Counted from the stretch's first letter, positions 3,799-52,409 are shown. The stretch: 64,000 nt of DNA from Candidatus Saccharimonadota bacterium (GCA_022841445.1 JALHRM010000001.1:13002-77001); one strand, 5' to 3'. Notes: generated by a model not told the origin, from the letters alone. Translations and numbers: made by a program.

Positions 3799-3828
3799 AT
3801 ATGATAAGTGAGAGGTTCTAGTTGTTCT

Positions 3829-6384
3829 ATGTCAAAAAATAGCCCGTCCAGTTGGACTAAACTACAATCAAACCTGCAGATAGTAACTGCATCCTTGATT
3901 TTTGTGTCATCACTACTATTACCGATATTTTCTTATACCAAATCATACGCTGCACCAGCGACACTACTAAATGGCGGTCTTGAGCAAGTAACCGGCACTA
4001 CACCTGATTGTTTTAGTCAATCTGGCTGGGGTGATCACGATTTAGCATGGGAACTAACCGATGATACGCACTCTGGCAATGTCGCGCAGTCAGTTACCAT
4101 CGGCAACTATGTCAGTGGTGACCGCAAACTTATGATGACCGAAAACGCTGCCTGTGCGCCCGCGGTTATTCCCGGAGAAGCATACAACATATCCCTGTGG
4201 TACAAGTCATCGTCAATCAGAAACTCACTTACCGTGTTCCGACACTCAGTTGCTGGCTGGACATATTGGACAGACTTAAAAGCCCTGCCTGTAACAGATG
4301 CCTGGACTGAGGTTACAGCAACAACTCCGGCAATACCCGCGGGCACAGACCAAATTTCGTTTGGTGTTTCTATATCGGCAGACGGCACACTCGTCACTGA
4401 TGATTACGGTTTAACGCGAGTTGGCGGTGACCCTGAACCAGAACCTGAGCCAGAACCGCCCACCGAGCTAAGCGTTAATCCAGGCTTGGAAGAAGGTGGT
4501 AACCCGCCGGCTAATTGGTTCTTGGCGGGTTGGGGTGACGCCGCAGTTAACGCTACCGTTACAAATGATGCACATAGCGGCGACCGAGCATACACAATTG
4601 AGCTAAACGGCCGCACGCAAGGTGATTTCAAACTCATACCGACCGAAGCCTCTGCGCCTCAGGTACAGCCAGGAAACATATACAATCTCTCGGCATGGTA
4701 CAAATCTACTACCGATCAAAATAGCGTTACGATTTTTGCCCACACCGCAGCCGGATGGGGATATTGGACTGATCTTCAGACACTACCAATGGCAAATGAT
4801 TGGACAAAGTTCACTATTGCAACACCTCAAATACCTCCGGGCATCGACGCCATCGCCTGGGGCGTGTCAATTTTTGGCGATGGAACGCTTGTTACCGACG
4901 ATTATTCAACAATGCTTCAAGGTCAGGCAGCACCACCACCCGAAGGCCCGGCCACTCAAGGCGAATGGACAGTGCTGGATTACGAGCTACCAATTCGTGC
5001 TATACATTCCACTCTGCTTTATAACGGCAAAGTGCTGCTTATAGCTGGTTCCGGCAATAGTGTTGAAGACTTTGAGGCAGGCACATTTAAGGCAAGCATC
5101 TGGGATCCAATCAGTGGGGTATTTAACACGCTTGATGTGCCTAAGGATATGTTCTGCGCCGGTCATGTAACACTGGCTGACGGGAGAGTTCTTATACAAG
5201 GCGGCACTAAATCTTACCCAACTACTGCCACTGCAGCTGATTACGGTGGCTTGAAAGATTCCTGGATTTTTGACCCAGAAACTGAAACGTTCACCGCCAC
5301 AAACGATGCTAATGAAGGACACTGGTACCCAACGCTTACGCAGCTAGGCAACGGCGATGTATGGATGGCAGGAGGCTTGAAAGAAGATACTACTGGTGCA
5401 GTCAATACTGAGTACTTCGACTTTGAAACAGAACAGTGGCTGCCTACAGGGCAAGTTCCGCAAACATGGTCGTTCTGGGGGCTTTACCCGCATATGTTCC
5501 TGATGCAAGATGGTCGTTTGTTCTACAGTGGCGGGCACACTTTCGGCAATAATATACCCGGTACCGGCGCAGCAATCTACGATTACCAAAATGCCACCAT
5601 TGCTGAGGTTCCTGGTCTCCGCGAAAAAGACATGCGGGATCAGTCAGCATCAGTCCTACTTCCACCAGCTCAAGATCAAAAAGTGCTCATCACGGGTGGC
5701 GGGAACATCAATACTGCAAACCCTGGCATCAAACTAACTGACATTATTGACCTAAAACAACCAAACCCTATTTACCAACCTGGGCCAGACCTACCAGGAC
5801 TTGGCAAAATGTATGTCAATGCAACTATCCTGCCTGATCGAACAGTATTCCTAAGTAATGGCGGCCAGCTTAACCGTGATGATTCCACCAACGTGATGAC
5901 CGCCGCCGTATACGACCCCGAAACCAACACCATGAAGCCTGTAGCGGCCGACCCAATCGGCCGTAACTACCACAGTTCTTCGGTACTATTACCTGACGGA
6001 CGTGTAGTAGTGCTTGGATCTAATCCAGGTGATGGCACATTCGAAATGCGAATTTCTGTCTACCAGCCGCCATATTCCTTCCGTACTGTTCGCCCAGATA
6101 TCACCAATGCCCCCACTCAAGCAACGTATGGCCAAAGCTTTAATTTCAACGTTAATGCTCCAAACAAACTTGTTAAGTGGGCGCAGCTTTTGCGACCAAT
6201 GTCAGTTACACACCAGACCGATTCAAACCTTCGACTTGTAGACCTGCCAATTGCGGTCAATAACGGTATTGCTACAGTGACCGTTCCTGAAAACTCCAAC
6301 TTACTGCCTCCTGGCCCGTACATGCTTACTATCACAGATTCTGACGGGATCCCTTCGATTGCAACGTGGATAATGATCCGTTAA
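3829..6384 (+). CDS. Secreted CBM-CBM copper-radical oxidase (galactose/glyoxal oxidase, AA5/GlxA-like)
   Basis: N-terminal signal/TM segment, two paralogous ~150-aa CBM_4_9-like modules joined by a PEPEPEPEPP linker, then a kelch propeller plus DUF1929-like C-terminus. Motifs include FCAGH (Cys codon 5155-5157), GHWYPT (Tyr 5326-5328), RNYHSS (Tyr-His 5968-5973) and SVTHQTD (His 6211-6213). The start could instead be GTG 3808. Confidence 0.75.
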   Translation: MSKNSPSSWTKLQSNLQIVTASLIFVSSLLLPIFSYTKSYAAPATLLNGGLEQVTGTTPDCFSQSGWGDHDLAWELTDDTHSGNVAQSVTIGNYVSGDRKLMMTENAACAPAVIPGEAYNISLWYKSSSIRNSLTVFRHSVAGWTYWTDLKALPVTDAWTEVTATTPAIPAGTDQISFGVSISADGTLVTDDYGLTRVGGDPEPEPEPEPPTELSVNPGLEEGGNPPANWFLAGWGDAAVNATVTNDAHSGDRAYTIELNGRTQGDFKLIPTEASAPQVQPGNIYNLSAWYKSTTDQNSVTIFAHTAAGWGYWTDLQTLPMANDWTKFTIATPQIPPGIDAIAWGVSIFGDGTLVTDDYSTMLQGQAAPPPEGPATQGEWTVLDYELPIRAIHSTLLYNGKVLLIAGSGNSVEDFEAGTFKASIWDPISGVFNTLDVPKDMFCAGHVTLADGRVLIQGGTKSYPTTATAADYGGLKDSWIFDPETETFTATNDANEGHWYPTLTQLGNGDVWMAGGLKEDTTGAVNTEYFDFETEQWLPTGQVPQTWSFWGLYPHMFLMQDGRLFYSGGHTFGNNIPGTGAAIYDYQNATIAEVPGLREKDMRDQSASVLLPPAQDQKVLITGGGNINTANPGIKLTDIIDLKQPNPIYQPGPDLPGLGKMYVNATILPDRTVFLSNGGQLNRDDSTNVMTAAVYDPETNTMKPVAADPIGRNYHSSSVLLPDGRVVVLGSNPGDGTFEMRISVYQPPYSFRTVRPDITNAPTQATYGQSFNFNVNAPNKLVKWAQLLRPMSVTHQTDSNLRLVDLPIAVNNGIATVTVPENSNLLPPGPYMLTITDSDGIPSIATWIMIR

Positions 6385-15888: not shown

Positions 15889-16323
15889 ATGCTCAATAAA
15901 ATATCTCCAGCCAAAATATACTTTTACCATATTATTACTTTGGGGCTGTACTTTTTTTACTGGGCTGCAAAAAGTCGTGCGGCAGTCAATTCTTCGGCCA
16001 AACAACCTTTGATTCCTAGCACTTGGCTGCTTGCGATTCCGTTCGCCAACTATTGGTGGATGTGGCAATACGCTCGAGCACTAGAATATGTTTCGTACAA
16101 ACGAATCCGATCAACTGACACGTTTTTGTTTTTTATTCTGGCAACTAATTTTATTTGGCTAGTATGGCAAGTGTTTTCCATATTTGACCCAAAATGGCTC
16201 GCAGGACATTTTGGTGTGATGAATTTAGTATTGTCGGCTATTGCCATAACGATTATCACAGTAATTCTAGGCCTTGGATTTTTCTGTGCTGTTATGCAGG
16301 GAAAAATAAATAAAATTCGCTAG
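15889..16323 (+). CDS. Small membrane protein, DUF4234-like paralog
   Basis: IITLGLYFFYWAAK motif. It sits in tandem with the preceding gene. Confidence 0.4.
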   Translation: MLNKISPAKIYFYHIITLGLYFFYWAAKSRAAVNSSAKQPLIPSTWLLAIPFANYWWMWQYARALEYVSYKRIRSTDTFLFFILATNFIWLVWQVFSIFDPKWLAGHFGVMNLVLSAIAITIITVILGLGFFCAVMQGKINKIR

Positions 16324-16394
16324 GTGTGAAAAATATGTGGTCGAAATTGCCAAAACAGAGGTGGTTTGCTAAAATTGCTTAGCTGTTACAGATC

Positions 16395-16471
16395 GGGCCA
16401 GTAGCTCAGCTGGTTAGAGCAGCGGCCTCTTAAGCCGCGTGTCGAGGGTTCGAGTCCCTCCTGGCCCTCCA
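16395..16471 (+). tRNA. tRNA-Lys (anticodon CTT), CCA encoded
   Basis: A 77-nt cloverleaf folded by hand. Acceptor GGGCCAG/CTGGCCC, anticodon arm GCGGC-CTCTTAA-GCCGC, and T arm GAGGG-TTCGAGT-CCCTC. Confidence 0.9.
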
Positions 16472-16481
16472 ATTTAGCCGT

Positions 16482-18056
16482 TTACTTTTTTAGTTTTCTT
16501 TTTATTGTTGATTTTTTACTTGATTTTGGCTTGCTTGTCTTCTCGGCAACAGTTGGTGGTGCCATGATACTTACGGGTACCAGATCATCAGATTGAACTG
16601 GAATTATAATTTTGGATAGAGGGTCGCCGAGTGGTCGCACTGTTTCGATTGGAACTGCCGAAGTTGGAGGAGATTGAGTTAGTACCGTTCTTTCAGGAAC
16701 AGTAATTTTAGGATCGACTTCTACGGGCGTGTGAGCTGCTTCTGTAGTTGCCGGCGTATCTGTTATTTTTTGTACCGCGACAGGAGGGATTGCAGCCTCA
16801 GATTTATGATTTTGCAACCTTAAGAAATTAACAGCGTTTGTAATGATTTTTGGGCGACTTCGGCGCTTGAGTACTTCATCGGCCAAGACTACTACCTTTT
16901 TACGAAAAATGTAAGCGTCCAAAGCCGCAAGCACTACGAAGCCTAACCCCAGCGAAATGGCAAGGATTTGCCAAAAACGACCACCCGAAGAAGATTTGTC
17001 CGCGGCAAGAGTAACTGCGATTTTAGTACCGATACCTTCCTTACCCGAAGTTACTTCGAGTTGCTGCTTAGAGGTAGCGCCCGAAAACTCGGCTAAGACC
17101 TGTTGCTTACCCGAAGCTGAGGATAATACTGCAATTCCTTTAGGATCTGTAACACTGCTTGAATCACCAATGCTAACTTTGACTCCGGCGAGTGGCTGCC
17201 CTTGCTCGTCATTTACTTTCACAGTTACAGGTATGCCCTTTGATGTAAATTTGCGTACCTCGCTGAGTTTGACGTTCCCGGCGGCATCAGCGCTTTTTAC
17301 CCTATAGAAATACGTTGTCTTGGGCTGTATGGCCGCTGCAGGTAATGTCACTTCATGCACTTTGGACAGAGCAGCTACACTGGCACTCAGCGCGTAGCTT
17401 TGATCAAGACTATATTCTACAACCGCATTAGCATCTTCATCTGTTTTCCAAACAATTGTTGCGCTATTTAGACCAATAGATTTTTCGTATATACCGCTTA
17501 TTGCAGGAGGGGTCGTATCTTTCGGCGGCGGGGGTGCGCCCGGAGTAGAATTTGAACTCGAACCGCCACCTGACTGAGGAGGAGTAAATGTCATATTGGC
17601 ACTGCCCTTACCTGAACCAATTTCAGTACCATTCGCGGCAACCGTTGAACCACCTGCAAAACTTAACGTTGCAGATCCACTACTCGCCAGCACTCGAAAT
17701 GAAATAGTCCCCACTAAGGCATCGCCGTTGATTGGACTAAGTGTGCCCCTTGCCATGCGCACAACTCCCCCTCCCCAGCTTGATTCGGCCTGAACTTCGA
17801 AGCTTGTACCAGAATAGTACGAGTTTAGGTACTCGAGTTTATCAGTTGGGTAGGCCACATTAGCTTGAACGGCGTTTACCCCTGCACCGCCGCCATTGAC
17901 CCGAACATTAATGAGAATAATGGCTGATTTACTCACCGACCGGCTGGCTGGTGACATGTACATGCTTGCACCAGCAGCAGATACAAACGGCGCAAACGGT
18001 GCCACCAAAAGCGCCGTTACAAATGTTGAAAATAGTGCCCACCGGATATTTTTCAT
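16482..18056 (-). CDS. Membrane-anchored surface protein: cohesin-like domain + Fn3 + CarboxypepD_reg-like + TM + Lys-rich cytoplasmic tail
   Basis: Signal peptide, a cohesin-like beta-sandwich (aa ~35-160, ..ILINVRVNGGGAGVNAVQANVAYPTDKLEYL..GTISFRVLASSGSATLSF..), an Fn3 segment (ATIVWKTDEDANAVVEYS), a TM segment FWQILAISLGLGFVVLAAL, and a KKSTIKRKLKK end. A GGGAGA SD lies 7 nt upstream of ATG 18056. Confidence 0.55.
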   Translation of the reverse strand: MKNIRWALFSTFVTALLVAPFAPFVSAAGASMYMSPASRSVSKSAIILINVRVNGGGAGVNAVQANVAYPTDKLEYLNSYYSGTSFEVQAESSWGGGVVRMARGTLSPINGDALVGTISFRVLASSGSATLSFAGGSTVAANGTEIGSGKGSANMTFTPPQSGGGSSSNSTPGAPPPPKDTTPPAISGIYEKSIGLNSATIVWKTDEDANAVVEYSLDQSYALSASVAALSKVHEVTLPAAAIQPKTTYFYRVKSADAAGNVKLSEVRKFTSKGIPVTVKVNDEQGQPLAGVKVSIGDSSSVTDPKGIAVLSSASGKQQVLAEFSGATSKQQLEVTSGKEGIGTKIAVTLAADKSSSGGRFWQILAISLGLGFVVLAALDAYIFRKKVVVLADEVLKRRSRPKIITNAVNFLRLQNHKSEAAIPPVAVQKITDTPATTEAAHTPVEVDPKITVPERTVLTQSPPTSAVPIETVRPLGDPLSKIIIPVQSDDLVPVSIMAPPTVAEKTSKPKSSKKSTIKRKLKK

Positions 18057-18057
18057 A

Positions 18058-19731
18058 TTAAAGTCTCCCATAATCATGCAGGAAGAAGCTTAAATCGTAA
18101 ATATCAACTTTGCCATTACCATTAAAATCTCCGGTTCCTGGCTTGCCCCAACGGCTAAGAATAGTGCTCAAATCAAATATATTCACCTTATTATCATTAT
18201 TGAAGTCGCTGAGCCGTTTGTTGTACACCGTTACATTTATGGTCTGGTTGGTAGTATTGCCATTTATATCCGTTGATTGCGCCATAATTGTATGACCAGT
18301 GTTCGACGCTGCATTGGTGTCCCATGCATATGTGACTGAATCACTATTAGCGCTCGCTACCAAAAGATTATCGATAAATAGTCGTGTAACACTAATGCCG
18401 AACTGGTCAGTTGCACTAGCCGAAATCGTTAATGAGCCGGTAAGGGTGACGCCGTTTGCAGGGTTATTAAATACGACATTCGGAGGCGTTGTGTCCGGCA
18501 AAGTCGAAGTCGCGAGCGTACCAACAGCCGAAACATTGGGGATAGCATCAAGTGCTTCTACGGTGTAAGTGTAGCTGGTGTTGTACGCCAGTCCACTATC
18601 GCTATACATAGTTCCACTGGGTGAAGCGATCAGGACGCCGTCACGGTAAACACGATAACCGGTGGTGGCAACGTCGTCAGTGGAGGCATCCCAGGATAGA
18701 TCAATACTGAATAGTTGGCGGTCGGTGGCCTGGATGTTAGCAGGAACGCTTGGGGCGGTAGTGTCGGGGAGGGTTGAAACGGTAAAAGTGCCCATAATAG
18801 AAACATTGCCAGTTGGATCAACGGCGGCTACGGAGTAGTCATACTCCGTATCGTAGTTAAGTCCTGTGTCGCCGAATGTAGTCCCCGAAGGTGAAGCAAC
18901 GAGAACCCCGTCACGGTAAACGTTGTAGCCACTCACCATGTGATTATCAGTGGAGGCATCCCAGGATAGATCAATACTGAATAGTTGGCGGTCGGTGGCC
19001 TGGATGTTAGCAGGAACGCTTGGGGCGGTAGTGTCGGGGAGGGTTGAAAAAGGAAGGGTAGAAGATGCGGCGGAGGTGTTATTGGCAGCATCTAGCGCTG
19101 TCAAATAGTAGTTGTACGTGGTGTTGGGATTGAGTCCTGTGTCTGTATAACTCGTAGTGATGGGCGATCCCACTAACGCGCCATTACGATACACCCGGTA
19201 TCCAGTCGTACCAACTTGGTCGTACGATGGATCCCAGGTAAGACGAACTGATGTCACTGTCTGCCAGGGCGACTGGATATTCGCTGGGATGCTAGGCGGT
19301 ATCGTATCAGCGATGGTTACAAAACGAAGTGGTGTTGCAGATATTCCACCGACATTATCGTAGGCTATTGCCTGAACATTGTGGCTACCAGCAGAAGCGA
19401 AAGTGGCGTCCCAATTTATAGTGTATGGACTAGCTACATCCGTACCCCTTAAGCCTCCATCAATATAAAACTCAACCCTAGTGATTGGCTCAGCATTAGT
19501 TACATCAGCGCTAAGCGTGACAATACCACTTACCGTGGCACCATCCAATGGACTTGTTAAATCTATCTGAGGAGGAGTTGCCAATACTGTCGGCGCAAAT
19601 ATGAATATGCCCGCTCCGATAGCAAGTTCTGATAAATGAGCTAGAAACGGAATATGCCTCCGAATGCTCGAAGAGATAACCGATAAATGAACCATGCGAT
19701 GTGATAGCGCAAGCCATCTAAACATGAGCAC
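18058..19731 (-). CDS. Secreted Ig-like/4x Fn3 protein with C-terminal type-I dockerin
   Basis: Signal peptide, an Ig-like domain, four Fn3 repeats (..RLTWDPSYD.., ..DLSWDASTD.. x2), and a second Ig-like domain. The C-terminus DFNNDNKVNIFDLSTIL..GDFNGNGKVDIYDLSFFL matches the duplicated Ca-binding dockerin repeat. Confidence 0.7.
   Translation of the reverse strand: MLMFRWLALSHRMVHLSVISSSIRRHIPFLAHLSELAIGAGIFIFAPTVLATPPQIDLTSPLDGATVSGIVTLSADVTNAEPITRVEFYIDGGLRGTDVASPYTINWDATFASAGSHNVQAIAYDNVGGISATPLRFVTIADTIPPSIPANIQSPWQTVTSVRLTWDPSYDQVGTTGYRVYRNGALVGSPITTSYTDTGLNPNTTYNYYLTALDAANNTSAASSTLPFSTLPDTTAPSVPANIQATDRQLFSIDLSWDASTDNHMVSGYNVYRDGVLVASPSGTTFGDTGLNYDTEYDYSVAAVDPTGNVSIMGTFTVSTLPDTTAPSVPANIQATDRQLFSIDLSWDASTDDVATTGYRVYRDGVLIASPSGTMYSDSGLAYNTSYTYTVEALDAIPNVSAVGTLATSTLPDTTPPNVVFNNPANGVTLTGSLTISASATDQFGISVTRLFIDNLLVASANSDSVTYAWDTNAASNTGHTIMAQSTDINGNTTNQTINVTVYNKRLSDFNNDNKVNIFDLSTILSRWGKPGTGDFNGNGKVDIYDLSFFLHDYGRL
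18678..18779. repeat. Intragenic perfect direct repeat, copy 1 (102 bp)
   Basis: Identical to 18948-19049 by direct comparison. The flanking sequence of the two Fn3 units is clearly diverged. Confidence 0.9.
18948..19049. repeat. Intragenic perfect direct repeat, copy 2 (102 bp)
   Basis: Identical to 18678-18779. The offset is 270 bp, which equals 90 codons or one Fn3 unit. Confidence 0.9.
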
Positions 19732-19825
19732 CCGCCTTTGCGACTAAGAATAACATAAGCTTATCCGTTATAACAGGGGTATTTGTACTATTTTTCTGAA
19801 CAAGATTATGCGCTATCATATATGT

Positions 19826-19942
19826 ATGGAAGCAATGTTTAGCGTGGAGGCTTGGACATCACCGATAGGTGTAGGATTTTTCCTTGTCAGTCTTGGACTG
19901 TTCATTTACCTCTTATCAAGAGCCGATAACAAAAAGAAGTAG
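19826..19942 (+). CDS. Possible 38-aa single-TM peptide (MEAMFSVEAWTSPIGVGFFLVSLGLFIYLLSRADNKKK)
   Basis: ATG-initiated small ORF in an otherwise empty intergenic region. It has a hydrophobic core and a basic tail. I found no SD. Confidence 0.25.
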   Translation: MEAMFSVEAWTSPIGVGFFLVSLGLFIYLLSRADNKKK

Positions 19943-19943
19943 T

Positions 19944-19972
19944 TTGACTACTCGTAGTTATTAGTATATATT
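19944..19972 (+). promoter_or_regulatory. Sigma70-like promoter candidate (TTGACT-N17-TATATT)
   Basis: TTGACT at 19944-19949 and TATATT at 19967-19972. Confidence 0.45.
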
Positions 19973-19981
19973 CATAATCAA

Positions 19982-20041
19982 ATGTTTTACTTGGTTATAA
20001 ACACTGAATTTAAGAAGAAGGCGCTTAAAGTTCGGCCGTAG
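19982..20041 (+). promoter_or_regulatory. Candidate leader uORF (19 codons, MFYLVINTEFKKKALKVRP-stop)
   Basis: The ATG lies about 10 nt after the -10 element. The TAG stop (20039-20041) lies inside the 9-nt segment that is complementary to the terminator loop and left arm. Confidence 0.3.
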
Positions 20042-20058
20042 CGCACTTTGTTGATTAC

Positions 20059-20091
20059 AAAAAGTCCCGCGCTACGGTGCGGGACTTTTTT
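20059..20091 (+). terminator. Intrinsic terminator-like hairpin (AAAAA-GTCCCGC-loop-GCGGGAC-TTTTTT)
   Basis: A 7-bp GC-rich stem (20064-20070 pairs with 20079-20085), an 8-nt loop and a 6-T run. It ends 8 nt before ATG 20099. Confidence 0.6.
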
Positions 20092-20098
20092 ATTTAAC

Positions 20099-20875
20099 AT
20101 GGCGAGAAGCAGCATTATGGCATCACACTTACATACACCTCACTCTTTGGAGGCATTACGGGATCATTATCGGCTTTTTTCTTCACCGGGAAATGTTGAG
20201 ACTGTGATACCCGAAATTAGCGCTGCCATAACTGCAGCGATAGAAGCAGGAGCTGCAATATTACCAAAAAGTCCTGATCAACTACGAACACAAATAAGTG
20301 GGGGGCTTGGGGCGGTTATTTTCGCGCGCACTCGAAGTCAAGGTTTAAGTTTTCGTTATTATGTGGGATTAACGCCGTTAATGGAAGGAGGGGATAATAT
20401 TGCGCCTATTTATGAACGAGGTACATTAATTGCTAACCCTGATACGGCTAGGCTTTATGATCCAAGTAGACACAGTGCCTCAGATGCTATTCGACTTGTT
20501 AATAGTTTTGTTACGCCTGAATCACTAATACTGTCGACCGTGCGGTCAAGAGCCAGTTTGAGAGCAGCGCTAGGAGCAGGGATGGTGATAGCTGACCGTC
20601 TTAAAACACCTGCGCTCGATGCATTAACTTGTACAGAGGAGTGCGCGCCAGGTAACAACGACGGCACACCAGTACCTATCAACTTAGCTCCTTTAGACCA
20701 TCCTGAAATTGGACAGTGCTACGCCTGCCCTGTGAGTCAGGCGCATTGCACTGTTAACCTTTCAGATCCTTGCCGCTTGACTGTCAATAGTCTAGAGTCC
20801 GCTCTGGATGTAAACAATAAACTTATGCGGATCTATGGCTCGCCTGTTGAAGTCCGCAAACGATTTGTAGATTAA
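20099..20875 (+). CDS. Hypothetical protein with Cys-rich C-terminal region
   Basis: 258-aa ORF from ATG 20099. The track's TTG 20048 start would read through the terminator hairpin. Six Cys occur within ~50 aa (CTEEC..CYAC..C..C), and no family was recognised. Confidence 0.45.
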   Translation: MARSSIMASHLHTPHSLEALRDHYRLFSSPGNVETVIPEISAAITAAIEAGAAILPKSPDQLRTQISGGLGAVIFARTRSQGLSFRYYVGLTPLMEGGDNIAPIYERGTLIANPDTARLYDPSRHSASDAIRLVNSFVTPESLILSTVRSRASLRAALGAGMVIADRLKTPALDALTCTEECAPGNNDGTPVPINLAPLDHPEIGQCYACPVSQAHCTVNLSDPCRLTVNSLESALDVNNKLMRIYGSPVEVRKRFVD

Positions 20876-37467: not shown

Positions 37468-39990
37468 GTGAATTTTAGTAGGACTCTTAAGAAGGGTTTG
37501 CTTACAACGGCAGCAGTATTGCTCATCGCTGCCCAGGCATCTTGGATTGCCGATAATCACGCCTCAGCAGCTCTGGGTCCAAATCTTATTTCTAATCCGT
37601 CTTTTGAGGTAGCTGCTCCTGCTAGTAGTACACTGCCACTGGATTGGACATCCAACAAATGGGGCACTAACAGCACGACATTTACTTATAAATCGAATTC
37701 CGCCCGAACTGGCACAAAAAGTGCGCTTGTTAAGATGACTAGTCGATCTAGTGGTGATGCCAAATGGATGCACAAAGCGGTTGCTGTGCAGCCAAACACT
37801 TCGTATACGTTCAGCGATTACTACAAGGCAAACGTTGCCAGCTCTTTGATTGCGGAAATCGGTACTGGCACCAGTGCATACAGCTATGTGACAATAGCCA
37901 ACCCAACCGCTAGTGCTTCAGTATGGAAGCAGGCTACCGCCACCCTGACGACACCCGCTAACGCTAAAACAGTTACCATCTTCCATATCATTAATAAAGT
38001 CGGAACATTAGAGATTGATGACGCCTCTTTCGGTCTTACCAATTACGCACCACCAGCTCCGACCCCTACTCCACCAACAGCCACCATTACCGCACCAAGC
38101 AATAATACTACCGTGAACGGCATCGTAAATGTCACAGCTACAGCTGGCGGTGACTCGAGCATCTCAGGGGTGCAGTTCAAGGTTAATAATGTGAACATTG
38201 GCGCAGAGGACACTATTGCCCCTTACGCAGTTGACTGGAATACGACCACTTATCCAAACACTACACACACTATTACGGTAGTAGCTCGTAACACTCAAGC
38301 ACTTGCCACGACATCCGTTCCTGTCACTGTAACAGTTAACAACATCGTAACTCCCGCACCACCAACACCGCCAGTTGATTCTGCGAATCTTATTCCTAAC
38401 CCTTCCGCTGAAACAGCCGAGACAGGGAACACTCAAAAACCTGTTGACTGGAGCAATGGTAGCTGGGGTACCAATACGCCGACATATTCGTATGTGAACG
38501 AAGGCCACAGTGGCACTAAGAGTGTGCGTACAACTGTTAGTAACTATTCCAGTGGTGACGCTAAATGGTACTTTAACCCCGTAACTGTCAATCCCGACAA
38601 GTCATATGACTACAACCACTACTACAAATCAAATACGACTACAGATATTCTGGCTCAGTTTACCGATGCTGGGGGCACAAATTCGTACAAATGGCTAGGT
38701 ACTGTAGCGCCTAGCACTATTTGGCAATTATTTTCCAGCAGCTTTATAACTCCTGCCGCTGCAACTAAAGTGACTGTTCTGCATATCGTATACAGTAATG
38801 GGTGGTTGCAACTCGATGATATAAGTCTAAAAGCTACTGCACCGCCTATTGTTGATAACGGTACCCCGTCAAACGGTTCTCTGGAACGAGCCATCAGCAA
38901 TAACCCTTCATTGCCCGATCTATGGACAAAGAGCAGTTGGGGCACAAATACACCAACATTTGAATATGTGAACGAAGGCCACACCGGCAACAGAAGTGTA
39001 AAAACAACTATTAGTAACTACGTAGACGGTGACGCTAAATGGTACTTTAACCCGATAACCACACTAGAACGCGGCAAACAGTATCGCTTTAACACTTGGT
39101 ACAAGACCAATACTTTGCCGAAAGTAGTTGCTATGTTTGAAAAAGACAACGGTACTACTACCTATTTTGGCCTGCCGAACCCGCAACCGAATGGCAGTGC
39201 AAACTGGCAAAATTATAGCGACACTTTTAGCGTGCCAGGGGATGCTAAGTCAGTGTCCGTGTTCATGTTCATAGATAAAAATGGCTGGGTACAAGTTGAT
39301 GATCAGACCATAACCCCCTACCTGCCAACAGGATTTAATCGCCCTCTTTTGACCCTCACGTTTGATGATGGTCACGAAGATAATGTTGCTAATGCTCTTC
39401 CGCTGCTTAACTCATACGGCATTAAGACGACACAATGTTACGCTACAGACCATGTCGAAGGGATCCAACAAGGTATTGATGGCGTGATGGCCTTTCACAA
39501 CAGCGGGCACGAAATCTGCTCCCATACAGTCAGTCATCCCTTCCTAACTACGCTGACACCAACCCAACTTGTATTCGAATTACAGCATTCCAAGCAAGTA
39601 CTTGAAACAGTTACCGGCCAACCCGTCCACAATTTTGCCTCGCCATATGGTGATTATAACCAAAGCGTGAATAACGAGATTAAAAATTACTATCGATCTC
39701 ACCGCACTGTTGACGAAGGCTACAACAGCAAAGATAACTTTGATGCCTACCGGCTACGCGTCCAAAATGTCTTCAACACTACCACTACCGGAGAGCTACA
39801 AGCCTGGATTAACCAAGCCAAAGCCACCAATACCTGGCTAATATTGGTATATCACCGTGTTGCCAATGACGCTGGACGGTACGACAGCTACCCGGCAGAC
39901 TTCGCCGCCCAGCTTGGTGTCATCAACCAAAGTGGTATAACAGTAAAGACGTACAACGATGCTCTGGGTGAAGTCGTTCCCCAACTTTAG
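37468..39990 (+). CDS. Secreted CBM-Ig-CBM-CBM polysaccharide deacetylase (CE4)
   Basis: Signal peptide, three ~150-aa CBM_4_9-like modules (..SGDAKWYFNP.. repeated), one Ig-like domain, and a C-terminal CE4 with LTFDDGHED and HEICSHTVSHP. Confidence 0.75.
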   Translation: MNFSRTLKKGLLTTAAVLLIAAQASWIADNHASAALGPNLISNPSFEVAAPASSTLPLDWTSNKWGTNSTTFTYKSNSARTGTKSALVKMTSRSSGDAKWMHKAVAVQPNTSYTFSDYYKANVASSLIAEIGTGTSAYSYVTIANPTASASVWKQATATLTTPANAKTVTIFHIINKVGTLEIDDASFGLTNYAPPAPTPTPPTATITAPSNNTTVNGIVNVTATAGGDSSISGVQFKVNNVNIGAEDTIAPYAVDWNTTTYPNTTHTITVVARNTQALATTSVPVTVTVNNIVTPAPPTPPVDSANLIPNPSAETAETGNTQKPVDWSNGSWGTNTPTYSYVNEGHSGTKSVRTTVSNYSSGDAKWYFNPVTVNPDKSYDYNHYYKSNTTTDILAQFTDAGGTNSYKWLGTVAPSTIWQLFSSSFITPAAATKVTVLHIVYSNGWLQLDDISLKATAPPIVDNGTPSNGSLERAISNNPSLPDLWTKSSWGTNTPTFEYVNEGHTGNRSVKTTISNYVDGDAKWYFNPITTLERGKQYRFNTWYKTNTLPKVVAMFEKDNGTTTYFGLPNPQPNGSANWQNYSDTFSVPGDAKSVSVFMFIDKNGWVQVDDQTITPYLPTGFNRPLLTLTFDDGHEDNVANALPLLNSYGIKTTQCYATDHVEGIQQGIDGVMAFHNSGHEICSHTVSHPFLTTLTPTQLVFELQHSKQVLETVTGQPVHNFASPYGDYNQSVNNEIKNYYRSHRTVDEGYNSKDNFDAYRLRVQNVFNTTTTGELQAWINQAKATNTWLILVYHRVANDAGRYDSYPADFAAQLGVINQSGITVKTYNDALGEVVPQL

Positions 39991-48768: not shown

Positions 48769-49548
48769 TTATAGAGTTTTTGCATAATTCACGGCGTTTT
48801 CAAAAATCGGCAAACCATGCGGCTTATCTATCATTTGTCGACGCCAATTGGGGTGTTGGTACGGAGTAACGAATCGCTCGGGGTGAGGCATCATCCCGAA
48901 AATCAATCCGCTCGGGTCACATAATCCTGCGATAGCATATAGCGAGCCATTTGGGTTTTGCGGGTATGCTTGAGTGAGTTTGCTGTTTGCAGTATATTGC
49001 AGCGTTGTCAGGTTCTGTTCTTTAATTTTCTTGAATGTATCATTATCGGCATGGAACTTACCTTCACCATGTGCAATTGGCAGACTCAGTTTTGTTCCTT
49101 CCATGCCTTTGGTGAATATACAGTGATTGCTAGTGGGAGTTAGTTCGATCCATCTACATTCAAAGTGACCGGAATCATTATTGGTAAGCGTGGCGTGCAT
49201 ATCGCCGAGACGAGAAAGAGGCAACAGTCCGGTTCGTACAAGCACCTGAAACCCATTACATATGCCGATTACCGGCTTTTTCGCTGCCACGAAACTGCTT
49301 ATCTGCTGCTTTAAAAAACTCAGTAATTCAACTGCCAATATTTTACCCGAGGCAACATCATCACCATACGAAAACCCGCCCGGTATGCCTAATATTTGAT
49401 AGTCAGATAGCTTTTTTTCGCCGCTTCTTAGCTGGTTCACATGTACATAGTCCGGCTTTGCACCTGCAAGCGAAAAAGCGAAGGCTAATTCTTCATCACA
49501 ATTAGTTCCATCGGTACGAAGTATGCAGACGCTTGCAAGATTCGGCAT
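48769..49548 (-). CDS. purQ: Phosphoribosylformylglycinamidine synthase, glutaminase subunit PurQ
   Basis: Starts MPNLASVCILRTDGTNCDEE. GGFSYGDD, the GICNGFQVL nucleophile Cys and MPHPER are present. The ATG overlaps the purL stop (TAATG), so the longer track ORF was rejected. Confidence 0.85.
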   Translation of the reverse strand: MPNLASVCILRTDGTNCDEELAFAFSLAGAKPDYVHVNQLRSGEKKLSDYQILGIPGGFSYGDDVASGKILAVELLSFLKQQISSFVAAKKPVIGICNGFQVLVRTGLLPLSRLGDMHATLTNNDSGHFECRWIELTPTSNHCIFTKGMEGTKLSLPIAHGEGKFHADNDTFKKIKEQNLTTLQYTANSKLTQAYPQNPNGSLYAIAGLCDPSGLIFGMMPHPERFVTPYQHPNWRRQMIDKPHGLPIFENAVNYAKTL

Positions 49549-52409
49549 TAGTGAAAAATCTCCTTCATTGGTTGCTGCCAGGCACTCTTCAAATGCTGCG
49601 AGGCTACTGAAAAAATATTTTTGCCACCCTGTGAAACAGAAATTGACTGATCTTTTGTGGTTGTGCCAATAATCGCACAAGGCACGCCAGCAAAATGCTT
49701 CGCAGCGACAGACTCACTCGCCAGTTCGACGATAAAACAGCCGGCAGTCTCACTAAACAACACTTCTTCAGGATGCACATCACCAAAACTATCGAGACTT
49801 ATATCGACCCCGACTCCGCCGCCAAAACTCATCTCGGCTAACGTAGCTGCCATTCCACCTTCGCTGATATCGTGGCAGGCAAGTATATCACCGCTAGTTA
49901 TTCCAGCATGAAGCGCCTGAAAAAGCGCCGGCAAGCCTTCAAGGTCAACCTTGGGCAATCTGCCACCATAAGCCTTTGTTTCAACAAATATTGATCCTCC
50001 GAGTGCGCCGACATCCAGCTTGCCAATGAGCGCAAGTACCGAGTCATGGGACTTAAAGTCAGATGATACCGTCTTTCGGGCATCTTCAATAGGGCCAAAC
50101 GCCGATACGCATAGCACCGGTGGAATTTTTAGTACAGTCTCGTCTGGGTAGCGATACGTGCTGGATAGACTGTCCTTGCCTGACACAAAAGGAATCTTAA
50201 AGGTGTCCGATACTGCAATACACGCGTCAAGAGACATATCTAAAGCCCCTAGTGAATCTTCATCAGGAAATGGCCAAATAAAATTATCGATAAGCCCCAG
50301 TTTGCGGTAATCGGCACCCACTGCAACCACGTTCGACAATGCTTCAGTGGCAGCCCAGACGCTCCCCCAGTAAGGGTCAATCTTATTCAAAACCGGGTTA
50401 AGCCCGTGCCCTACTACTGCTCCAATATGTTTATCTAGAAACGGCGTAACTACAGAAGAATTATTCGGAGCATCGCTATCAACACCAGTAAATGGAGGAA
50501 GATTACTCGTACCCTGCACACCGTGATCATAGAGACGGACGATGGGTTCTTTTGAGCAGACATTGTAGTCGCCCATGACGCGCTGATATGTTTCTTCCCA
50601 GTCTGATATAACCGGCATTTTTGCCTTAGCAAATGACGGCTGCTTCCATGAAGCTTGCATAACCCTCTGTGGCAAACCGTCGTGTAAGAAGCTCATCGGT
50701 AGATCACAAACTACATCATTTTCGTACATCACTGTAAGATTCTTTTTGCCTGTAAAGCTCCCTATAACTGACGCCTCGACATTCAGCTTGCCGCATATTG
50801 CAAAGAATTCTCGCTCGTCTTTTGGATCAATTGCAACGACCATGCGTTCCTGTGATTCGGAAATCCATATTTCCCATGGTGCTAGTCCCGGGTATTTAAG
50901 CGGTGCTTTTTCAAGATTGATTAATACTCCGGCTTCCTCACCCATTTCACCAACAGCCGATGAAAACCCACCTGCACCACAATCTGTAATAGCCCGAATG
51001 AGTCCGGCATCCCTCGCAGCCAATATGGCATCAGTTGTTCTTTTTTCTTCAATAGCATTGCCTATTTGCACAGCGGATGAATTGACCGAAATCGTATCGG
51101 CAGTCATTTCACCGCTGCTGAATGTCGCTCCATGAATGCCGTCTCTTCCCGTTCGACCACCCATAGCAATAATCAGATCGCCTTTTTTTGGAACACCTTT
51201 TTGAGCTCGCTCTTCGGGTATCAAACCATATGCGCCGACAATCACAGAGGGCTTGGCTTTAAAATCTTCATGAAAATGTATCGAACCGTTATTGGTCGGG
51301 ATACCCATGCGGTTACCGTAATCACGAACACCTGCAACAACACGCCTGAGCAAGTAACGCGGGTGCAAGCAACCTGGAGGCAACTCGCCATCAGATAAGT
51401 CTGGGGGCGCAAAACAAAACATGTCAGTTGACACAATAACCTTCGCACCCTGACCTGTGCCAATAATGTCGCGAAATACGCCCCCGCTGCCCGTAGCAGC
51501 ACCACCGTATGGTTCAATAGCCGAAGGGCTGTTATGTGTTTCAACTTTGCCGCTGAAGCCCCAGCCATCGCTTAAGCGCATTACTCCTGCGTTATCTACG
51601 AATGCCGAAATGACGTTTTCATCGTATTTTTTTGTAGCCTGCATGAGACGTTTAATGAGTGGTGTTTTTTCTTTGCCATCAACTATCAACTTGGCCTTAA
51701 ATGTTTTATGACCGCAGTGTTCACTCCAGGTCTGAGCCAATGTTTCGAGTTCCACGTCAGTTGGTTCTCGCTTGATAGACCGGTAATATTCCTGAATTAC
51801 TTTCATCTCTTCAAGATTCAGAAAGAATTGGCCGTCTTTAGATAGCTGCTCTAGCTCACTGTCCGACAATTCTAAAATTGGTACAGATTTTGATGCTGGA
51901 CTCTTGCCTTTGATGGTCAACGTTTTAGGCGACTCTTTCAGTACAATTTCGACCGTTTTATTACGAAGCAGTCGGTCAAGTATGGCGTCTATGTCTTTAT
52001 CACTCGGCGTACCATAAAAATGATACTCCCACGAACTATCGACCGCTTCGAGGCTACCAATGCCCAGGTCTTTTGCAGCCTTTAGTATTGAGGCTGCTTC
52101 GGGATTCATGACACCGGGGCGGTAGGAAACCTCAGTTTTTTTGTCTGCATCATTCAAAATTTGTCGGTTGATGACATAATGATTGCTCAGCGCTTCTGAT
52201 AACAAGTTGTCGGCCAAATTTTTGACTTCAGTTTCGGTAATGCCTTGAAGTCGATAGACGCGCACCATTTTTAATGAAATTACACCACCAATGCCTAGTG
52301 TGCTTTTTATTTCGGACAATACATCTTCGGCGCGCGGGTCTAAGCCATTCGAGAGTACCCTCAATTCCTGAATAACACGCTCGCTGGTTGTGCGCGGTTT
52401 TACGGTCAC
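49548..52409 (-). CDS. purL: Phosphoribosylformylglycinamidine synthase PurL with two N-terminal PurS-like repeats
   Basis: At 953 aa it is about 210 aa longer than a small PurL. The N-terminus has two PurS-like units (..LDPRAEDVLSEIK..VRVYRL.. and ..MNPEAASILKAAK..). Two AIR-synthase-like repeats follow, with ETHNSPSAIEPYGGAATG. GTG start with a GGGAG SD. Confidence 0.85.
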   Translation of the reverse strand: MTVKPRTTSERVIQELRVLSNGLDPRAEDVLSEIKSTLGIGGVISLKMVRVYRLQGITETEVKNLADNLLSEALSNHYVINRQILNDADKKTEVSYRPGVMNPEAASILKAAKDLGIGSLEAVDSSWEYHFYGTPSDKDIDAILDRLLRNKTVEIVLKESPKTLTIKGKSPASKSVPILELSDSELEQLSKDGQFFLNLEEMKVIQEYYRSIKREPTDVELETLAQTWSEHCGHKTFKAKLIVDGKEKTPLIKRLMQATKKYDENVISAFVDNAGVMRLSDGWGFSGKVETHNSPSAIEPYGGAATGSGGVFRDIIGTGQGAKVIVSTDMFCFAPPDLSDGELPPGCLHPRYLLRRVVAGVRDYGNRMGIPTNNGSIHFHEDFKAKPSVIVGAYGLIPEERAQKGVPKKGDLIIAMGGRTGRDGIHGATFSSGEMTADTISVNSSAVQIGNAIEEKRTTDAILAARDAGLIRAITDCGAGGFSSAVGEMGEEAGVLINLEKAPLKYPGLAPWEIWISESQERMVVAIDPKDEREFFAICGKLNVEASVIGSFTGKKNLTVMYENDVVCDLPMSFLHDGLPQRVMQASWKQPSFAKAKMPVISDWEETYQRVMGDYNVCSKEPIVRLYDHGVQGTSNLPPFTGVDSDAPNNSSVVTPFLDKHIGAVVGHGLNPVLNKIDPYWGSVWAATEALSNVVAVGADYRKLGLIDNFIWPFPDEDSLGALDMSLDACIAVSDTFKIPFVSGKDSLSSTYRYPDETVLKIPPVLCVSAFGPIEDARKTVSSDFKSHDSVLALIGKLDVGALGGSIFVETKAYGGRLPKVDLEGLPALFQALHAGITSGDILACHDISEGGMAATLAEMSFGGGVGVDISLDSFGDVHPEEVLFSETAGCFIVELASESVAAKHFAGVPCAIIGTTTKDQSISVSQGGKNIFSVASQHLKSAWQQPMKEIFH

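Follow-up and report, generated by a model that had tools for sequence, protein, structure and literature searches.

Two adjoining minus-strand open reading frames (ORFs; 18058-19731 and 16482-18077) encode a protein that ends in a compact dockerin (gene A) and a protein that carries a cohesin ahead of a transmembrane (TM) helix (gene B). They lie in a 64-kb stretch of DNA, hereafter the window, that is part of a 464,451-bp contig from a Candidatus Saccharimonadota bacterium (GCA_022841445.1, JALHRM010000001.1:13002-77001). Cohesin and dockerin are the plug-and-socket pair that builds cellulosomes, and we consider it likely, on fold, profile, and comparative evidence, that the gene A dockerin docks onto the gene B cohesin as a cognate anchor-plus-cargo pair at the cell surface. 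Moreover, the two genes appear to be the minimal form of a modular system common in Patescibacteria and made of cargo, optional adaptors, and TM-anchored cohesins. Both products are unnamed in the protein collection searched. An earlier, sequence-only reading of the window took it to come from a bacterium that belongs to the candidate phyla radiation (CPR), and that assignment fits the RNase Y of the window, which is ~80% identical to proteins of Candidatus Saccharimonadales or the Patescibacteria group.

Genes A and B run in the same direction, and it is probable that they share one transcript and that their translation is coupled. Gene A (18058-19725, minus strand) encodes 555 amino acids (aa), gene B (16482-18056, minus strand; MKN start) encodes 524 aa (P0001), and both products are on record. 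The sequence-only reading had found both minus-strand genes. It set the start of gene A at a GTG (19731); the start is likely the ATG at 19725, as in the 555-aa product. The junction reads TAT GGG AGA CTT TAA t ATG, such that the gene A stop codon (18060-18058) is followed by one spacer base (18057) and then by the gene B start codon (18056-18054). A Shine-Dalgarno-like motif for gene B, GGGAGA (18064-18069, minus strand), overlaps the end of the gene A coding sequence and precedes the ATG by 7 nt. The 1-nt spacer and the motif inside gene A, both of which had been pointed out before, are the basis for suggesting co-transcription and coupling. No terminator-like site was found on the coding (minus) strand from 16300 to 20200, in promoter and terminator scans that gave no more sites than shuffled sequence would and therefore carry little information. 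Finally, the single dockerin gene and the single cohesin gene of the window are neighbors among ~58 genes.

The C terminus of the gene A protein has the features of a type I dockerin. Residues 503 to 555 (18061-18219, minus strand) hold two EF-hand-like calcium loops, DFNNDNKVNIFD (18172-18207) and DFNGNGKVDIYD (18094-18129), which start 26 residues apart, the second beginning 22 residues before the last residue of the protein. In both loops, positions 1, 3, 5, and 9 are D or N and position 12 is D, and a helix start of the form D-L-S-x-hydrophobic comes next. When scanned alone, the module scored 27.9 bits against PF00404 (cutoff, 22.9), and both of the canonical calcium-binding repeats described earlier were located. 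Moreover, a Patescibacterial profile built from 28 dockerins of related loci found solved dockerins as its best matches in the PDB, with 2y3n_B at an E value of 4.1e-11. With the window sequence excluded, the dockerin profile recovered the gene A module at 64.3 bits (E value, 1.2e-19) as the sole match among the 418 six-frame ORFs of the window, and a regular-expression scan of the 64 kb in six frames found no double dockerin-type loops beyond those of gene A. The module is compact, as 41 residues cover 49 positions of the PF00404 model, the inter-repeat linker is ~6 to 8 residues shorter than in solved dockerins, and 2y3n_B requires a 6-residue insertion to align with the Patescibacterial profile. 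Loop positions 10 and 11 hold hydrophobic pairs, I-F and I-Y, in the two repeats. Mesophilic type I dockerins, such as those of C. cellulolyticum, also have hydrophobic pairs there, and Acetivibrio thermocellus has Ser-Thr; the best cohesin matches of the gene B domain are C. cellulolyticum and C. acetobutylicum modules. As a lead only, the near symmetry of the gene A repeats would allow a dual binding mode.

The gene B cohesin (residues 28 to 160; 17577-17975, minus strand) is predicted to form the membrane-distal N terminus of the mature protein, and we regard its identity as settled at the level of sequence homology and modeled fold. A word-index homology search with the domain alone returned no relatives, comparison of gene B with NCBIfam gave no cohesin match, and a single-sequence search of the PDB gave weak Fn3 matches only. 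An exhaustive HMMER search with residues 28 to 160 was needed, and it recovered 1670 cluster representatives (clustering at 50% identity) with E values of 1e-3 or less. PF00963, the Pfam cohesin model, matched 62 of 67 members of the resulting family at an E value of 0.01 or less (best, 4.1e-13), and the 14 best PDB matches of the family profile were all cohesins or cohesin-like modules, led by 1g1k, 6kgc, 2vn5, and 6kg8 at ~1e-5. An AlphaFold2 model of the domain from the family alignment reached a pLDDT of 95.8 and a pTM of 0.89. When the model was compared with the PDB by Foldseek, the first 40 matches were all cohesins, many of them solved as dockerin complexes, with TM scores of 0.55 to 0.84 overall and 0.74 to 0.84 for the first eleven. 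Finally, a profile from which the window sequence and its nearest neighbor in the alignment (P0003) had been left out matched the gene B domain at 143.9 bits (E value, 4.8e-44) and no other ORF among the same 418. Thus, what had been called a cohesin-like beta-sandwich is a cohesin by family profile and fold. The most conserved motif of the family, NAVQAN, aligns with the strand-3 region of 1g1k, and strand 3 of type I cohesins belongs to the dockerin-binding 8-3-6-5 sheet.

The cohesin and dockerin genes stay together in relatives. Seven aligned orthologs of gene B share its whole architecture of signal peptide, cohesin, Fn3-like module, CarboxypepD_reg-like module, and TM helix. A gene for a double-loop dockerin protein lies directly upstream on the same strand in all five orthologs that were located on contigs (P0002, 81% identity; P0003, 50 to 51%; P0004, 37 to 38%; P0010 and P0011, 33 to 34%), with spacers from a 1-nt overlap to 84 nt, and the orthologs at 81% and 50% identity are accompanied by a Big_7/Fn3 rod cargo like that of gene A. 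When each species was represented by a single genome, a scan seeded with a 17-sequence subset of the 67-sequence alignment found 44 loci with this cohesin family. A dockerin gene lies directly upstream of the cohesin gene on the same strand in 21 of the 44, and a dockerin ORF lies within 6 kb in 33. In a greedy gene set drawn from all loci of relatives (the 44 plus the ortholog contigs, with the window excluded), dockerins were carried by 31/64 genes directly upstream of a cohesin gene versus 23/378 other genes (odds ratio, 14.5; Fisher P, 6.8e-16). Dockerins became rarer with distance from the nearest cohesin gene, from 33/99 at one gene to 3/75 at two, 1/60 at three, and 0/126 at four or more. 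The sequence-only reading had held that the pairing would be in doubt if dockerin genes in relatives were never linked to this partner; linkage was found in 5/5 orthologs and in the enrichment above. The 44 loci are mostly labeled Candidatus Saccharibacteria, Saccharimonadales, or Saccharimonadia, with others labeled Woykebacteria or Patescibacteria group and a handful labeled bacterium. Four are labeled outside Patescibacteria (Gammaproteobacteria, Nanoarchaeia, and Babeliales) or without a phylum, and none is labeled Actinobacteria. We note that the loci with those three outside labels (L008, L009, and L034) have the same operon type and represent either misbinned Patescibacterial contigs or horizontal transfer.

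The wider family contains anchors, adaptors, and varied cargo. Among 158 cohesin-family representatives, 99 have a TM helix C-terminal to the cohesin or cohesins, and 18 pair a dockerin with one cohesin or with up to three or more. A dockerin together with at least two cohesins is present in 15 of the 158, an example being P0018 (552 aa, three cohesins). Many of the 1670 representatives bear two to four tandem cohesins, and relatives with three or four (among P0018, P0026, P0021, and others) look like scaffoldin-type polyvalent adaptors outside any cellulolytic context. Many loci, L005, L007, L009, and L012 among them, are three-tiered, with one to three cargo-dockerin genes, then a gene whose product starts with a cohesin and ends in a dockerin, and then a cohesin-TM gene. 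Anchoring, monovalent-adaptor, and polyvalent-adaptor scaffoldins are classes defined for cellulosome producers (PMC11557425), and by architecture the cohesin-TM and cohesin-dockerin members of the family correspond to them.

Cargo in the related loci includes Big_7, fn3, PA14, CARDB, discoidin, CBM6/35, right-handed beta-helix, and M10, M11, and M12 metallopeptidase modules. Of 18 cargo proteins scanned, 16 passed the Dockerin_1 cutoff at 24 to 37 bits and most had Big_7 close to the C-terminal dockerin. None of the 18 contained a glycoside hydrolase catalytic domain, the nearest being a GH115 C-terminal domain that one protein matched weakly and below the cutoff. Some dockerin-tagged cargo proteins carry metallopeptidase domains of the M12 reprolysin-like, M10 matrixin, and M11 gametolysin kinds (L048:1459-4416, L012:3464-5779, and L005:1381-4050), and the platform therefore seems to display enzymes as well; the displayed peptidases could act on host surface proteins. 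Separately, a subtype with reversed gene order (L030:62-2131, L032:5896-7920, and L047:5905-7863) consists of a short cohesin protein, a cohesin-TM protein, and a dockerin protein of ~230 aa. The dockerin of this subtype is divergent (DIDQNG..NFLDFSRLAAKYNQ) and has a longer linker, and the subtype may be a separate specificity group.

The body of the gene A protein is a rod of five beta-sandwich modules. Module scores for both proteins come from segment-wise Pfam scans, and boundaries come from hydropathy and layout analysis. At the distal tip is an immunoglobulin (Ig)-like Big_7 module (residues ~52 to 140; 19306-19572, minus strand; PF17957, 72.7 bits alone), followed by three tandem Fn3 modules (residues ~143 to 231, 234 to 322, and 324 to 412; 18490-19299, minus strand; PF00041, 33.5, 26.4, and 22.3 bits) and a second Big_7 module directly before the dockerin (residues ~414 to 500; 18226-18486, minus strand; PF17957, 45.3 bits). 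The sequence-only reading had given a signal peptide, an Ig-like domain, and four Fn3 domains; the count of five beta-sandwiches stands, but the Fn3 modules number three and sit between two Big_7 modules. Fn3 modules 2 and 3 share a 103-nt direct repeat that is 100% identical (18677-18779 and 18947-19049), with the copies spaced 270 nt apart, the length of one Fn3 module. Tandem Repeats Finder reported no repeats in genes A and B. In the relative with 81% identity, the gene A ortholog (L001:5786-7999) is 737 aa long and has about six Fn3-type repeats as counted by eye, compared with three in gene A. Fn3 copy number, and hence rod length, appears to vary through recombination between repeats.

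What the gene A protein displays is most likely an adhesin or spacer fiber. Pfam detected Big_7, fn3, and dockerin modules only, and as no catalytic domain is detectable, a structural role seems more likely than an enzymatic one. A candidate NCBIfam name for gene A, exoglucanase CbhB, was rejected, as the match spans only the noncatalytic Fn3 repeats and scored 214 bits against a cutoff of 1950. The N terminus (residues 1 to 49; 19579-19725, minus strand) has, by hydropathy, a long N-region and a hydrophobic core, LAIGAGIFIFAPTVLA, followed by TPPQ. We presume it to be a Sec signal peptide, and the same N terminus, with its long N-region and hydrophobic core, is present in the 81% relative.

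The remainder of the gene B protein is built as a type I membrane anchor. A signal peptide is predicted at residues 1 to 27 (17976-18056, minus strand), with cleavage between PFVSA and AGAS, from hydropathy and from an N-terminal helix at residues 2 to 21 of the structural model. A G/S/P linker separates the cohesin from an Fn3-like module (Pur_ac_phosph_N; residues ~182 to 272; 17241-17513, minus strand), which scored 32.1 bits against PF16656 when scanned alone (cutoff, 30) and was modeled at a pLDDT of ~90. A CarboxypepD_reg-like beta-sandwich follows (residues ~275 to 350; 17007-17234, minus strand), also modeled at a pLDDT of ~90 and scoring 28.4 bits against PF13620, below the cutoff of 32.3; PF13620 is listed in the precomputed annotation of orthologs P0004 and P0009 to P0011. 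The single TM helix (residues ~362 to 384; 16905-16973, minus strand) corresponds to the hydropathy maximum of 2.11, is followed by RKK, and is kept in 7/7 orthologs. The cytoplasmic tail (16485-16904, minus strand) is rich in Pro, Thr, and Val, has a net charge of +12, and is predicted to be disordered (pLDDT, ~33). It is lineage specific, the long form occurring in the closest relatives only and distant orthologs having 20 to 45 aa, and we ascribe no conserved function to it. The AlphaFold2 model of the full-length protein starts with a helix, continues through three beta domains to a long helix (residues 357 to 399), and ends in a disordered tail, and its best Foldseek match in the PDB is the cohesin-Fn3 double module 2w1n. 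Thus, the layout of Fn3, CarboxypepD_reg-like, and single TM segments given by the sequence-only reading was right, but the basic tail is 140 aa long rather than ~130.

How the two proteins would work together can be outlined from their architectures. The gene B protein would be exported by Sec, have its signal peptide cleaved, and take up a type I orientation in the membrane, the basic tail remaining in the cytoplasm. The Fn3-like and CarboxypepD_reg-like stalk and the flexible G/S/P linker would hold the single cohesin off the membrane. The gene A protein would be secreted, its compact dockerin would fold around two Ca2+ ions, and the dockerin would plug noncovalently into the gene B cohesin. 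The five-module rod of Big_7, three Fn3, and Big_7 would then project from the cell, with the N-terminal Big_7 module at the tip, where an adhesive role may be supposed. Finally, the 1-nt spacing would favor translational coupling, with the two proteins made in similar amounts.

Several observations speak against this mechanism or narrow it. Support for docking of A and B is indirect and comes from the conserved linkage of dockerin and cohesin genes. The window cohesin, scored alone, falls just under the Pfam cutoff (E value, 1.2e-4; 22.7 bits against a PF00963 cutoff of 24.1) and is absent from the full-length scan even at an E value of 1 or less; likewise, the gene A dockerin is sub-threshold in the full-length scan (19.5 bits against 22.9), a low score that can be attributed to the compactness of the module. 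The N-region of the gene A signal peptide is unusually long, and if the peptide were not cleaved, the gene A protein would also be tethered to the membrane at its N terminus. Our view covers 64 kb of the contig, and partners elsewhere in the genome are therefore possible. Moreover, cargo and adaptor dockerins within a single related locus are nearly identical (L005, L007, L012, and L034), and specificity may therefore be loose, such that "cognate" may mean "one of several." Finally, adjacency is not universal, since no cohesin gene adjoins SEML1_0315 of Southlakia epibionticum, which encodes a dockerin-domain Ig/Fn3 surface protein that was essential in a transposon screen (Wang et al. 2023, PMC10633639).

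Some of these observations suggest that A and B are coregulated but not exclusive partners, with the gene B cohesin acting as a general socket, or the gene A dockerin docking mainly elsewhere, in a promiscuous network. The near-identical dockerins would suit one shared specificity, some loci have several cargo genes per anchor (three in L012), the window is a small part of a contig of at least 464 kb, and the essential Southlakia dockerin protein stands alone. Nevertheless, we think such a network unlikely as the account of this pair, as the window has exactly one dockerin and one cohesin, 1 nt apart, and the Big_7/Fn3 rod cargo stays with the gene B ortholog at 81% and 50% identity. We note that a network would still accept A-B binding and differs from the docking of a cognate pair on exclusivity alone.

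Alternatively, the folds may have been kept while the interaction was lost. The cohesin-like domain would then be a structural or glycan-binding Ig-like module, and the dockerin would be a calcium-stabilized end that binds a polymer of the cell's own wall or a host glycan. The marginal Pfam scores of the window's own domains and the short inter-repeat linker would agree with such a loss, a non-cohesin (CLIPPER, 9ifr) appears among the weaker fold matches at rank 41, and Wang et al. (2023, PMC10633639) read the Saccharibacterial dockerin-domain protein as possibly targeting glycans. A dockerin-then-cohesin order that persists to 33% identity and a 14-fold upstream enrichment are not what lost binding predicts, however, and adaptors that bear a cohesin at one end and a dockerin at the other would be pointless unless the modules bound one another. 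The conserved NAVQAN motif also falls in the strand-3 region (1g1k), part of the dockerin-binding sheet in type I complexes, and we consider loss of the interaction very unlikely. More improbable still is action in trans, in which a released dockerin rod binds cohesins on neighboring cells of the same species or on host cells and promotes aggregation or host attachment. Cross-species cohesin-dockerin recognition is documented in cellulosomal systems (discussed in PMC13487519), a use of such modules in consortia has been proposed for ANME (anaerobic methanotrophic) archaea (PMC9012536), and cultivated Saccharibacteria are described as epibionts on host Actinobacteria (PMC10633639). Tight translational coupling and conserved operon order, however, favor assembly in cis by the producing cell, and not one of the 44 cohesin-family loci is labeled Actinobacteria, the host group of cultivated Saccharibacteria. 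Docking of the gene A dockerin onto the gene B cohesin at the surface of the cell that makes both remains our preferred explanation.

The surroundings of the pair offer further observations. A tRNA-Lys(CTT) gene (16395-16471, plus strand) converges on gene B 10 nt past its stop codon. In a close relative (L001, 9742-14434), the region downstream of gene B instead holds genes of no known function, an MgsA_C gene, and a Phage_integrase gene, and the region may be an integration hot spot. On the other side, a 275-aa ORF divergent from gene A (20048-20875, plus strand) has no Pfam match, and a 252-aa gene in the equivalent position of the same relative (L001, 4637-5395) likewise has none. Two large multidomain proteins without dockerins are encoded elsewhere in the window, one with CBM_4_9, Kelch, and a galactose-oxidase-like E-set (3808-6384, plus strand) and one with CBM_4_9, Big_7, and a polysaccharide deacetylase domain (37468-39990, plus strand); both may be further surface proteins directed at glycans. 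Finally, positions 49548-52409 (minus strand) encode an FGAM synthase of the PurL type, whose N terminus gives a weak PurS-like match. Genes for de novo purine synthesis are usually absent from the most reduced Saccharibacteria, and the lineage represented here may be less reduced.

Why such a pair matters lies in the lifestyle of its relatives. Cultivated Saccharibacteria spend their lives attached to host cells, as do probably many other CPR bacteria, and the proteins that build the interface are mostly unknown. Plug-and-socket display of exchangeable cargo, whether rods, glycan-binding modules, or metallopeptidases, is a testable model for part of that surface assembly. Moreover, the pair points to a missing cohesin partner for the essential dockerin-domain protein of a cultivated Saccharibacterium (PMC10633639). 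We speculate, with considerable doubt, that the pair is the simplest case of an undescribed, Patescibacteria-wide surface-assembly system that resembles a cellulosome without cellulases, that grips and processes the host surface, and that would offer an explanation for essentiality in Southlakia. If so, TM-anchored cohesins, monovalent and polyvalent cohesin-dockerin adaptors, and interchangeable dockerin-tagged cargo would be its parts, and tiny epibiotic cells would build their host-gripping and host-processing interface from cohesin-dockerin components. Genome surveys probably undercount the system, since full-length Pfam scans miss or under-score both modules. For the window itself, the analysis provides a well-supported functional annotation of two unnamed proteins, and a compact dockerin of ~50 aa with a small cohesin could serve as a new orthogonal pair in protein-assembly engineering.

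No description of a cohesin-dockerin system in Saccharibacteria, CPR bacteria, or DPANN was found in the full-text literature searched, a collection that excludes most subscription journals. The earlier statement that no such unit had been functionally described in CPR bacteria agrees with that literature. The only relevant mention found there is one sentence on the essential Southlakia protein (PMC10633639). SEML1_0315 resembles gene A in coming from the same phylum-level group, in being an Ig/Fn3-rich envelope protein described with a dockerin, and in its proposed role at the host interface (PMC10633639). It differs in standing alone, flanked by an alpha/beta hydrolase gene and a tRNA-Glu gene, and the likeness to gene A is one of description only. 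A cohesin partner of SEML1_0315 is not mentioned in the text or supplements examined (PMC10633639).

The pair is not a cellulosome in the strict sense, as it has no carbohydrate-active enzyme cargo, no carbohydrate-binding module (CBM), and a single cohesin. The gene A protein consists of Big_7, fn3, and dockerin modules, gene B supplies one cohesin rather than a multicohesin primary scaffoldin with a CBM, and CBM3 models matched 0 of the 67 cohesin-domain segments of the family. Among the fold matches of the gene B cohesin are 3ul4 and 4dh2, which by their PDB titles are the OlpA and OlpC cohesins of Acetivibrio (Clostridium) thermocellus. OlpA and OlpC are monovalent anchoring scaffoldins, each combining one type I cohesin with S-layer homology (SLH) domains, and are among the closest functional analogs of the pair. 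In each, one dockerin-bearing protein is held directly at the cell surface by the one cohesin of a cell-bound protein, as is proposed here from the genes. Anchoring is by SLH domains in OlpA and OlpC, however, and by a C-terminal TM helix with a cytoplasmic tail in gene B, and the present pair differs further in a cargo without a glycoside hydrolase, a dockerin linker ~6 to 8 residues shorter, and a CPR organism.

The other close functional analog is ClcC/ClcD of Cellulosilyticum lentocellum, adjacent single-cohesin and single-dockerin genes whose products form a heterodimer in vitro (PMC13487519). Both cases have one cohesin gene and one dockerin gene, adjacent, co-oriented, and probably in one operon (PMC13487519); for genes A and B, this holds within the 64 kb. 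The sequence-only reading described a minimal two-gene system, which is apt for one adjacent gene of each kind, but the concept has already been shown in this Firmicute (PMC13487519). ClcD belongs to the GH5 cellulases, and ClcC, a secreted CBM3-X2-cohesin protein, has no cell anchor (PMC13487519), whereas the window pair has a noncatalytic Ig/Fn3 rod as cargo, a membrane-anchored cohesin, and nothing pointing to cellulose degradation. A C-terminal TM helix is itself a recognized mode of scaffoldin anchoring (PMC11557425). Gene B, with a cohesin, a C-terminal TM helix, and a positive-inside tail, fits the non-SLH anchoring scaffoldins defined by at least one cohesin plus such a helix, and the related cohesin-dockerin proteins fit the adaptors (PMC11557425). 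Those classes were drawn up for cellulolytic Firmicutes in which glycoside hydrolases are fused to dockerins, and the terms Patescibacteria, phyla, and candidate are absent from the main text of the study (PMC11557425).

Cohesin and dockerin modules outside cellulose degradation also have precedents. The GH84 family of Clostridium perfringens (2w1n, a cohesin-Fn3 module, and 2ozn) provides the best match of gene B, 2w1n, but carries its modules on secreted glycosidases. The noncellulosomal cohesin of Archaeoglobus fulgidus, 2xdh, is a top fold match of the gene B cohesin. Archaea are without multicohesin scaffoldins according to Peer et al. (2009), as far as that work is summarized in PMC9012536, and ANME proteins with up to five cohesins and a dockerin have been reported (PMC9012536). 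Compared with the C. perfringens and archaeal modules, the present system has a conserved operon order, and its relatives include proteins with two to four cohesins and proteins that combine cohesin with dockerin. The mechanism proposed for A and B is the ordinary cohesin-dockerin one, and anchoring by a TM helix and noncellulosomal modules in C. perfringens, Archaeoglobus, and ANME archaea are already known. What is new here is the host lineage, the nonenzymatic rod as cargo, the compact dockerin, and a conserved operon system across Patescibacteria.

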